DNA from: an uncultured Bacilli bacterium
GTDB lineage: Bacteria > Bacillota_I > Bacilli_A > RF39 > UBA660
NCBI GenBank assembly: GCA_910586295.1
Contig: CAJUGE010000011.1
Location: forward strand, 22,798 to 86,797
Reading direction: 5' to 3'
Length of the DNA stretch: 64,000 nt
The stretch's first letter is position 1, and each line of letters begins with the position of its first letter. Shown here in pieces: positions 27,636-29,582 of this stretch. Position numbers and translations under genes: made by a program. The notes beneath the pieces are model-generated. The model saw only the letters and a program-made list of their open reading frames with translations. It was not told the DNA's origin and did not search any database.

Positions 27636-27666
27636 AGAGTTTGTAATTACGCACAAACTCTTTTAA
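27635..27666. terminator. Bidirectional terminator hairpin (10-bp stem aagagtttgt/acaaactctt)
   Basis: Perfect inverted repeat between convergent genes, T-run downstream. Confidence 0.65.
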
Positions 27667-29582
27667 CTTACTTTTAATGTTCTTGCAAAATCTTCACTTT
27701 CAGCTATAGTTATATCTAAACCATGTTTTTGCATTCTCTCAACATATGAATAGTAGTACTTCCTATCTATTAAATATATTGGAATATTTAATTCACTAGC
27801 AGCCTTTAATTCAATATCGTTAATTCTATCAAAACATACTATATAACTTGGTTTTAACCTTTCATTTTCATTAACTCTTTTTAACAATATTTCATTATAT
27901 TTTCCATGCGGAGCACTTGTTCTGTTATTTATTTCAGCAGTTTTTGTAATAATATCATCTACTAAGCCTACTGTATTTATATTAGAACTAATTCCTTGAT
28001 CTCTCATATTAAGATTGGAATTACCATCCAATTTTCTATTAGTACCTGCATCACCAATAAAAGTATACTTGATATTTTCTGGTGGAACATTATCAAAACC
28101 AAAAGTTATAGACGTTCCTCGACTATCTGATACACCATAAGTTATCATTGCCTTATCTGAAATAAGTGAAGTAGAAATAAAATTATTTCCACCATTTATT
28201 TCATTAAATAACCTAGGGTTCTCAAGTATTTTCTCAGCAATATCATTATTAGAAGACATAGAATTAGAAATTACATTATGAACCAACATAGTAAATGGAT
28301 GTCCATTTAATTCATAAACATCAATATTTTTCCCATTACTATTTACTACACTATGCTTAGCAACATTCTCAATTTGACTAGTTTTCTCCAATAAATTTTT
28401 ACTAAACTGTTGCTTTACTAATTCGTTACCATCTCTCTCCATCTCAAAAATTAACTTTTCATAATTACGAACACTATCCTTATCAAGAGCCTGAGCGATA
28501 CTAATAATTTCCTCATCACTAGCAGTATAAAGTTTATTGAGAAGTTCTAAAATTGTTTCATATTTTTCTTTAAACTCAAAAGATAACTGAGTTTTATTAA
28601 TAGTCTCCAAAAACAAAGGTAAATAATTCATATCTTTTCTTTCTATACCAAAATATTTGTTTAACACAAGTTCAGATTTATTATAATTTCCTATACTAGC
28701 TTCTATTAAAGACTTACTCATATCTTCTAGGGAAACATTTCTAAACCAAACATACCTATCATAACTAACCAAGTCTTTAATAAGATCATAATTTCCATAA
28801 GAACAAATTTGGAATATCTTTTCAAACTCTTGACTATATAAAAAACTTGATTTTCTATATAATTCACTTAAAGTTTCTACACCAATATTTTGAATAAACT
28901 CCATTGAAAACTGTTCCAAAGCAATAGTATTTCTATTACCCAAATCACTTTCAATAAATCTACGACTCTCAGAAATATTTTCATAAGTATATTTAAGTCC
29001 TTCAAAATAATCTTTCTCTACAATTTCACTAAGAATATCCATTTTCCTTCCAAATAACTCTAGAGTAGTCTTATCTCCAATATAAGGATTTTGAGAAATA
29101 ACATTCCACATTTTATCTCCAAAAAATTTAACATTAATCTTATTTAAATCCACTTTGGGATTATTTTTCTTATACTGAAGTAACCTACTACCATAGCCTT
29201 TATCTATAACTTCACTGATATTATCACTAAAAATATCATAACCAATCAAGTTATATAACTCTATAAAATTTTCATCCTTAAAAACATTAATATTACGTAC
29301 TACCCTATTCTCAAAACCATTTTTTCTAATAAACTCAATATACTTAGAAGCATTATTAGACTTATGAAGTTCATAAACAGCATGCACATGAGATCTTATA
29401 ACATCTTTATTAATTCCAGCTTTACTAAGATCGATAATAAACTCTCTAAACTCTTTCTTATACACACTAAGAAAATCCTTATTATCTAAAATTTCAGACA
29501 ATAACTTATCATCTATACCTAAATCTCTTAATTCACGGTAATTTAAATTAAGTTTGGCCTTATTTAAAATATTCATAAACAT
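27663..29582 (-). CDS. Large hypothetical protein (639 aa), no recognisable domain
   Basis: Long uninterrupted ORF on the opposite strand, convergent with rlmH and divergent from yitT; no known motif recognised. Confidence 0.6.
   Translation of the reverse strand: MFMNILNKAKLNLNYRELRDLGIDDKLLSEILDNKDFLSVYKKEFREFIIDLSKAGINKDVIRSHVHAVYELHKSNNASKYIEFIRKNGFENRVVRNINVFKDENFIELYNLIGYDIFSDNISEVIDKGYGSRLLQYKKNNPKVDLNKINVKFFGDKMWNVISQNPYIGDKTTLELFGRKMDILSEIVEKDYFEGLKYTYENISESRRFIESDLGNRNTIALEQFSMEFIQNIGVETLSELYRKSSFLYSQEFEKIFQICSYGNYDLIKDLVSYDRYVWFRNVSLEDMSKSLIEASIGNYNKSELVLNKYFGIERKDMNYLPLFLETINKTQLSFEFKEKYETILELLNKLYTASDEEIISIAQALDKDSVRNYEKLIFEMERDGNELVKQQFSKNLLEKTSQIENVAKHSVVNSNGKNIDVYELNGHPFTMLVHNVISNSMSSNNDIAEKILENPRLFNEINGGNNFISTSLISDKAMITYGVSDSRGTSITFGFDNVPPENIKYTFIGDAGTNRKLDGNSNLNMRDQGISSNINTVGLVDDIITKTAEINNRTSAPHGKYNEILLKRVNENERLKPSYIVCFDRINDIELKAASELNIPIYLIDRKYYYSYVERMQKHGLDITIAESEDFARTLKVS

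Follow-up and report, generated by a model that had tools for sequence, protein, structure and literature searches.

A predicted ADP-ribosyltransferase-fold domain in an unannotated protein family of uncultured gut Bacilli

ADP-ribosyltransferases (ARTs) are divided in textbooks into a diphtheria-toxin-like class with the motif H-Y-[EDQ] and a cholera-toxin-like class with the motif R-[ST]-E. One member is CteC, a type III secretion system (T3SS) effector of Chromobacterium violaceum, which mono-ADP-ribosylates Thr66 of ubiquitin (PDB 8ux2; PMC10810742). Its core has six strands in the order 4-5-2-1-3-6, ubiquitin is recruited by four helices that are inserted between strands 4 and 5, and the R-S-E motif (R65/S97/E220) is accompanied by a catalytically essential aspartate, D134, which holds the nicotinamide ribose (PMC10810742). 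DarT1 and DarT2 are DNA-base ART toxins of the DarTG toxin-antitoxin systems; in DarT1, Ser replaces the Tyr of H-Y-E and a catalytic Asp is found alongside the Glu (PMC11543638). Here, we describe a protein, most likely of 637 aa, that is encoded on the minus strand between rlmH and yitT in a 64,000-nucleotide stretch of DNA (the window) from an uncultured Bacilli bacterium (assembly GCA_910586295.1, contig CAJUGE010000011.1, positions 22,798 to 86,797). Its C-terminal domain is predicted to adopt the ART fold and carries a set of conserved residues that appears to combine features of both textbook classes.

The structure of this protein was predicted with AlphaFold2 without templates, at full length from a 37-sequence family alignment (mean predicted local distance difference test score (pLDDT) 87.9, predicted template modelling score (pTM) 0.72) and for residues 400-625 from 38 sequences that were mutually <40% identical (pLDDT 87.5, pTM 0.88). 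Residue numbers are those of the 639-aa open reading frame (ORF) throughout. In the model an all-alpha N-terminal domain is followed by a C-terminal domain with the split six-stranded beta core of the ART fold, and the C-terminal tail of ~15 residues is disordered. Of the 60 structural matches listed for the C-terminal domain, about 50 belong, by our count, to the ART superfamily, and DarT toxins are second-tier neighbours. These match scores are fold-level and not homology-level; the functional coherence of the list would be hard to get by chance. According to the model, residues 408-620 fold as an ART. A preliminary description, made from the sequence alone, had noted that the C-terminal third looked globular and enzymatic, and this third is indeed the best-conserved part of the protein as well as the part with the predicted ART fold. 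Within the domain, conservation and confidence are lowest in the insertion at aa 512-562, which has a helix at 541-554, a pLDDT of 60-62 over aa 520-540 and a mean identity of 29%. The N-terminal domain gave no family match, and a fold search with it returned designed helical bundles only.

The conserved residues of the domain were counted over 100 diverse C-terminal domains. D511, E564 and P578 were present in 100%, F496 and P601 in 99%, S470 and S472 in 95%, R569 in 94%, N563 in 93% and C583 in 71%. The H435 column contained His in 90, Thr in 9 and Asn in 1 of the 100 sequences, and Arg in none. H435, S470 and E564, which are 90-100% conserved, lie, as judged by their placement in the model, on the strands where ARTs bind NAD+. 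G495-F496 is located at the end of strand 3, and strand 6 spans residues 580-584, after which a beta-alpha unit completes the domain. From the R-S-E class (ARTC) the domain has S-T-S on strand 2 and Glu on strand 5 but not the Arg on strand 1; from the H-Y-E class (ARTD) it has His on strand 1 and Glu on strand 5, with Ser instead of Tyr on strand 2. The conserved aromatic residue is F496 on strand 3 rather than a strand 2 Tyr. To judge from the sequence, the motif is probably a hybrid of the two classes, H / S-T-S / E plus Asp.

In CteC and in the model presented here, strands 4 and 5 of a six-strand ART core are separated by a helical insertion, with Ser on strand 2, Asp past strand 4 (the residue essential in CteC) and Glu on strand 5. 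The spacing is similar: H-S-D-E are separated by 35/41/53 residues, versus 32/37/86 for R65-S97-D134-E220 of CteC, where 38 of the 86 residues are insertion. We propose that H435, S470, D511 and E564 correspond to R65, S97, D134 and E220, respectively, on the basis of strand position and spacing, not superposition. Neither protein has an immunity gene, and ubiquitin, the target of CteC, is absent from bacteria. However, the two share only 6-8% identity, with no relationship at the level of hidden Markov models and no detectable sequence homology. In addition, CteC has Arg65 where the present family has His, the present protein has a 405-residue helical N-terminal domain and an extra N-terminal hairpin, and its source is a Gram-positive gut Bacilli organism without T3SS.

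Cholera-toxin-like R-S-E ARTs (C3, iota/VIP2; PF03496) also begin strand 2 with S-T-S and open strand 5 with a Glu that is followed by hydrophobic residues and Arg; the sequence 'NEILLKR' of the present protein resembles the C3 motif 'QLEVLLPR'. Moreover, a PF03496 domain co-occurs with the module in one relative (P0103, see below). On the other hand, the present protein has His for Arg on strand 1, an aromatic residue for Q/E two positions before the Glu, and no match to the PF03496 or PF01129 profiles. To go by ExE (Arg-specific) and QxE enzymes, the aromatic residue at this position argues weakly against an arginine target. DarT1 and DarT2 are, like the present protein, H-type ARTs, and their being cytoplasmic toxins may be a further likeness. 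DarT1, with Ser at the Tyr position and an Asp, offers a partial precedent for the hybrid motif, although its conserved Asp lies before the Ser whereas D511 lies after it. Unlike in DarTG systems, no macrodomain (DarG) or NADAR antitoxin gene was found beside the gene or its homologues; the protein has no Pfam DarT match, and it is much larger than DarT1 and DarT2 and has a dedicated N-terminal domain.

At the level of sequence families, the protein was invisible. Single-protein searches of Pfam, NCBIfam, PADLOC, PHROGs and PDB sequences found nothing significant, the best sub-significant matches (GRHL1_C, E 0.033; PDC-S02, E 0.017; Spo0M, E 0.0054) all fell within the helical region, and Pfam had no match at E<=10. 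A search of PDB sequences with a profile of 38 diverse C-terminal domains yielded only E>0.3 matches and identified no family; one of them, a ribosomal-protein-S2-like beta-alpha-beta motif (PDxIVxxD...A...IPI), was judged a chance resemblance. A word-indexed profile search with this domain recovered 7 proteins only and added nothing. A confident match to a known family, which by the preliminary description would speak against its reading, exists for the fold, as that of the ART superfamily, and not for any sequence family. The description of the protein as an orphan has to be given up. A search of 5.8 billion proteins detected 85 clusters (90% identity) that match ~95-100% of its length at 31-100% identity, none of which carries a Pfam domain, and an exhaustive HMMER scan of 1.84 billion representatives detected 131 clusters at 50% identity. 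Approximately 40 of these 131 are full-length relatives, and the remainder share just the C-terminal ~210 residues, often together with ~170 preceding helical residues; the proteins that host the domain are 300-5100 aa long. The gene is real and conserved, and it belongs to a sizeable unannotated family, for which 'hypothetical protein [Bacilli bacterium]' is the sole name in any source.

Pfam analysis of all members of two homologue sets (A1 and A2) revealed no recurrent family, and among 20 distant multidomain relatives it detected DUF4116 repeats in 2 and nothing else. The ART-like domain sits behind many different N-termini, including those with DUF4116 repeats, whereas the helical N-terminal domain was seen only with the ART-like domain and was never found fused to another C-terminal domain. 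All relatives that could be traced to their source came from mammalian-gut metagenomes and uncultured metagenome-assembled genomes (MAGs). In GTDB genomes they were without exception from uncultured MAGs, under the labels Bacilli, Clostridium sp. or Tenericutes, and the isolate or contig names indicate Hadza people, rabbit ('Lapin') and goat rectum as sources. A 97%-identical copy is present in 'Bacilli bacterium isolate ABMPRH_62_0'. A phage origin was considered and rejected, as there was no BFVD structural match and no relative in IMG/VR.

The coordinates of the gene and of its parts are given in Table 1. In the ORF listing of the window it appears as a minus-strand ORF of 639 codons (27663..29582), convergent with rlmH (27198-27635, +; SPOUT_MTase) and divergent from yitT (29751-30629, +; YitT-family membrane protein). 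The window has a G+C content of 28%, at which stop codons are expected every ~14 codons, and the chance of 639 stop-free codons at its base composition is P ~3e-21. The GC skew of the plus strand is -0.25 to -0.52 exactly over the ORF, as expected of minus-strand coding, and neighboring plus-strand genes show the mirror image. These data, together with purifying selection (see below), bear out the earlier view that this is a long genuine ORF and not an artefact of AT-rich sequence. The length of 639 aa applies to the ORF, but probably not to the protein: AGAGGAG is spaced 7 nt from the second ATG (29576) but just 1 nt from the first (29582), and homologue gene calls all begin with MNIL.../MNL..., which makes the second ATG the most likely true start. 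The protein is acidic (pI 5.4) and hydrophilic and has no predicted transmembrane segment or signal peptide, in agreement with the preliminary description, which had recognized no motif and no membrane segment in it. The bidirectional terminator proposed there also found support, with 2 terminator-like sites against 0.2 expected; the clean promoter did not, as promoter-like sites were not enriched (15 found, 20.2 expected by chance). An Rfam scan of the whole window detected no RNA element.

Table 1. Positions in the window of the ART-fold gene, its flanking signals, and the domains and codons discussed in the text
Feature	Position	Strand	Remarks
Coding sequence, 637 aa to stop	27663..29576	-	Mechanical ORF starts 6 nt upstream (29582); chance P ~3e-21; dN/dS 0.16-0.29
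Shine-Dalgarno AGAGGAG	29584..29590	-	7 nt upstream of ATG 29576; read straight from sequence
12-bp-stem hairpin, likely shared (bidirectional) terminator	27634..27663	.	Between convergent stops of rlmH and the ART-fold gene
N-terminal all-alpha domain, aa 3-407	28362..29576	-	Predicted; ends in a ~40-residue helix (aa 368-407) leading into the putative catalytic domain
C-terminal ART-fold domain, aa 408-620	27723..28361	-	Predicted; N-terminal beta hairpin, six core strands, one terminal beta-alpha unit
H435 codon	28278..28280	-	Motif PFTMLVH, near end of core strand 1 (431-438); proposed first triad position
S470-T471-S472 codons	28167..28175	-	Motif ISTSLIS, opens core strand 2 (468-475); 'STS' of R-S-E type
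D511 codon	28050..28052	-	Just past core strand 4 (504-509); proposed equivalent of CteC D134
Variable, partly helical insertion, aa 512-562, between core strands 4 and 5	27897..28049	-	Same topological site as the CteC substrate-recruiting insertion
N563-E564 codons	27891..27896	-	Start of core strand 5 (563-568); motif [YWH]-N-E-[IV]-x-L-x-R; E564 is the proposed catalytic glutamate
R569 codon	27876..27878	-	Arginine five residues beyond E564; 94/100

The gene has the appearance of an accessory-type insertion between walJ/rlmH and yitT, as had been suggested. All 8 distinct contigs that encode an identical RlmH carry it at the same site, and the order rlmH - gene - yitT is kept in loci whose proteins are 78% (L034) and 71% (L036) identical to that of the window. 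The position is held in three lineages, down to 71% identity, and in more distant genomes the gene occupies unrelated positions. The ratio of non-synonymous to synonymous change (dN/dS) was 0.23, 0.16 and 0.29 in three comparisons, versus 0.02-0.09 for rlmH, yitT, ftsE and ftsX compared with L034. The gene is under purifying selection, with amino-acid change 2-9 times faster than in its neighbors. Two observations on individual contigs should also be mentioned. The contig L031 (4606-6519), which is from the same species and has low coverage, carries a nonsense change (GAA to TAA) in codon 234, with the result that 352-aa and 233-aa ORFs are called separately; this may reflect a pseudogene allele or an error in sequencing. 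In L036, identity to the window is 100% over the 3.4 kb that lie right of ~29675 (yitT, ftsE, ftsX and the beginning of the following gene) and only ~78% on the left side (the ART-fold gene, rlmH and walJ); this breakpoint may be the end of a recombination tract in the promoter region of the gene, or else the contig is a metagenomic chimera.

Members of the core 640-aa family are always encoded by solitary, monocistronic-looking genes, and their neighbors vary by clade: ScpAB in L002, a serine-recombinase / Mob_Pre / resolvase island in L006, flavodoxin and PNP genes in L037, and tRNA synthetases and LtaS in L038. In L004/L005 (8001-11015), a member is flanked on either side by a giant cadherin-like surface protein (of 2594 and ~5857 aa, respectively) and is followed after 14 bp by a 199-aa ORF without family and then by an 89-aa NUDIX ORF; the 31%-identity subfamily to which it belongs (P0068-P0083) has a C-terminal hydrophobic helix resembling a transmembrane tail anchor. 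When all ORFs within 4 kb were clustered in 15 loci, no conserved partner gene was found, and the neighbors in common were limited to a generic ABC ATPase in 4 of the loci and serine recombinases in 3. Likewise, no macrodomain, ARH or NADAR gene was present in the Pfam-annotated tables of homologue loci or among the scanned ORFs of the window.

Three distant relatives are instructive. The gene for P0213 (973 aa) belongs to a Mob_Pre/RepA_N/TnpV element, where it follows an AbiEii gene with a single 151-aa ORF in between, and P0129 (827 aa) is encoded near T5orf172, a giant Eco57I/ResIII protein and a PLD-like gene. P0103, a 5100-aa protein from a rabbit-gut Bacilli MAG (L025, 1251-16553), contains the whole helical and ART-like module at ~1994-2751 and, close to its C-terminus (~4600-4800), a canonical PF03496 ADPrib_exo_Tox domain. 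Three ORFs of ~100 aa lie upstream of its gene and a DUF4176 gene lies two genes downstream. Residues 1-2000 of P0103 had no Pfam match, and LXG was not detected by Pfam in the scanned pieces (1-2000 and 2701-5100). DUF4176 proteins are chaperones of LXG toxins exported by the type VIIb secretion system (T7SSb) (PMC12478183, PMC12482557). With its module, second ART domain and DUF4176 neighbor, this one relative resembles the T7SSb LXG toxins; the window protein differs from them in being free-standing, without LXG/WXG, chaperone, immunity or nearby T7SS genes.

Considering these data, we suggest that the gene encodes a soluble two-domain protein, made in the cytoplasm, whose ART-fold domain is probably a conflict-type effector, i.e., a toxin module, rather than a housekeeping enzyme. 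This view is based on the recruitment of the module into a giant toxin, on the mobile and defence-like surroundings in which distant relatives are encoded, on the variety of N-termini joined to the ART-like domain and on the elevated dN/dS. We infer the use of NAD+, the roles of the residues and the effector role as follows. H435, S470-T-S472, D511, N563-E564 and R569 would bind NAD+; E564, with help from D511, would promote release of nicotinamide, and a macromolecule would receive the ADP-ribose. The variable strand 4-5 insertion and the 405-residue N-terminal domain might recruit this target, keep the enzyme inactive, or both. Since no immunity gene was found, either the producer would lack the target, which would then be a component of a host or a phage, or the N-terminal domain would hold the enzyme off until it is triggered, for which the helical domains of PARPs provide an autoinhibitory precedent.

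In its most specific form, which we offer tentatively, the protein is the founding member of a new ART clade (H / S-T-S / D / N-E) in uncultured mammalian-gut Bacilli, which has no immunity protein because the ADP-ribosylated host-cell or phage target is absent from the producer, and whose module also occurs in a giant T7SS-exported multi-effector toxin. The modified group might be a hydroxyl side chain, as with CteC, or a nucleic-acid base, as with DarT. The predicted fold and chemistry are classical; what is new is a family invisible to current libraries, the hybrid H/STS/D/E motif, the fixed partnership with a large helical domain and the lack of an antidote gene, in uncultured gut Bacilli.

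Several observations weigh against an effector of the ART type. The residue equivalences were derived from strand placement and spacing, and the motif begins with His instead of Arg and has an aromatic residue, in place of Gln or Glu, two positions before the Glu. Searches of Pfam, NCBIfam and PDB sequences gave no sequence-level link to any ART family, and hhalign comparison of the domain profile with the canonical PF03496 domain of P0103 gave a 0.1% probability. The core family is found among housekeeping genes and is fixed in the species (8/8 contigs), a setting that is atypical for toxins and defence genes. Finally, neither a secretion signal nor an LXG domain is present in the window protein, no T7SS or immunity genes accompany its gene, and there was no PADLOC or viral match.

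Regarding the kind of conflict, an exported effector directed at a host or competitor and a phage-triggered abortive-infection enzyme are rated about equal. In the latter case, which taken by itself is possible but rather doubtful, the protein would act as a single-gene defence system: the N-terminal domain would sense a phage cue and free the ART-fold domain, and either NAD+ depletion (as an NAD+ glycohydrolase) or ADP-ribosylation of nucleic acid or the translation machinery would stop the infected cell. The biochemistry would be the same as in the main proposal, with a different role and trigger. A large N-terminal domain joined to a small effector domain with no antitoxin would fit such a system, as would the distant relatives that are encoded next to AbiEii on a mobilisable element or near Eco57I/ResIII, T5orf172 and PLD genes, the faster non-synonymous change than in neighboring genes, and the structural neighborhood of DarT toxins, which protect against phage. 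However, PADLOC-DB v2 has no significant model for the query or the 37 family members (the best, PDC-S02, reached E 0.017 in 2/37), and the core 640-aa family lies between housekeeping genes and not in defence islands. Its presence in 8/8 contigs of the species, with synteny down to 71% identity, is also at odds with the usually patchy distribution of defence genes.

The same stability would suit an endogenous regulatory ART that reversibly modifies a protein or nucleic acid of its own cell, for example in the control of growth, division or sporulation, with the reversing hydrolase encoded elsewhere in the genome. We consider this less likely, and on the whole improbable. The gene is vertically inherited, fixed in the species and under purifying selection, and it is monocistronic among dnaB, walJ, rlmH, ftsEX, M23 peptidases and whiA, genes of replication, division and the cell wall. 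There is also a precedent in DarT, which is reported to control replication and transcription in M. tuberculosis (PMC12170906). However, conservation of the position does not extend beyond the immediate clade and none of the functional neighbors recurs, neither the scanned ORFs of the window nor the Pfam-annotated homologue loci include a macrodomain, ARH or NADAR gene, and the same module is found inside a giant toxin-like protein.

The remaining alternative is that the domain does not use NAD+, being either a dead ART-like scaffold or a look-alike of the ART fold with a hydrolase-type triad made of the conserved H/S/D set (alternatively, with an H...C583 dyad of cysteine-protease type). In clan CD peptidases hydrophobic residues precede the catalytic residues, and here four such residues precede each of H435 and C583. 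This alternative is very unlikely. In its favor, the domain lacks sequence similarity to any ART, and His, Ser and Asp each show conservation. However, C583 is present in only 71% of the domains and the structural matches included no peptidase folds, which led us to reject a clan-CD-like His...Cys protease; nor did they include hydrolase folds, which speaks against a Ser-His-Asp hydrolase. Moreover, the invariant Glu that opens strand 5 and the STS that opens strand 2 occupy ART signature positions, and the strong conservation of the putative active-site residues argues against a dead scaffold.

Several other features of the window were recorded. The WalJ/YycJ-like metallo-beta-lactamase-fold gene upstream of rlmH (26443-27201, +) also matches PF23023 (Anti-Pycsar_Apyc1) in precomputed Pfam tables, probably through cross-matching within this fold. 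A prfB-like ORF (18631-19642, -; PCRF/RF-1, release factor 2-like, 286 aa from the first ATG) has CTTTGAC upstream on the same strand (19636-19642), consistent with the classical +1 programmed frameshift site of prfB. Two DUF6624 paralogues (56417-56989 and 58330-58899, +; region 56417-58899) flank a 278-aa ORF that contains only the DUF4143 part of an AAA_14+DUF4143 ATPase, of which a full-length copy is located at 40780-42081 (-). A 193-aa ORF (58943-59524, +; MKIVYHGSKNG...) had no Pfam or PDB-sequence match, and hhalign of this 'VYHGS' ORF with the profile of the ART-like domain showed no relationship. A 335-aa ORF (35280-36287, +) also lacked a Pfam match and is present, unannotated, in a matching contig (L001).

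ADP-ribosylating enzymes are central weapons and regulators in conflicts between hosts and microbes, among microbes, and between phages and bacteria, and new clades have tended to reveal new target chemistry. In the present family, at least 131 clusters (50% identity) carry a predicted ART-fold domain that no family database recognizes, with a motif that appears to bridge the two textbook classes and without an antidote gene. A new family model would be justified, so that its members cease to be annotated as hypothetical. If the protein is active, it would provide a tractable entry to a new activity of uncultured gut Bacilli, being a soluble protein of 637 aa with a domain of 215 aa and obvious point mutants (E564A, D511A and H435A).

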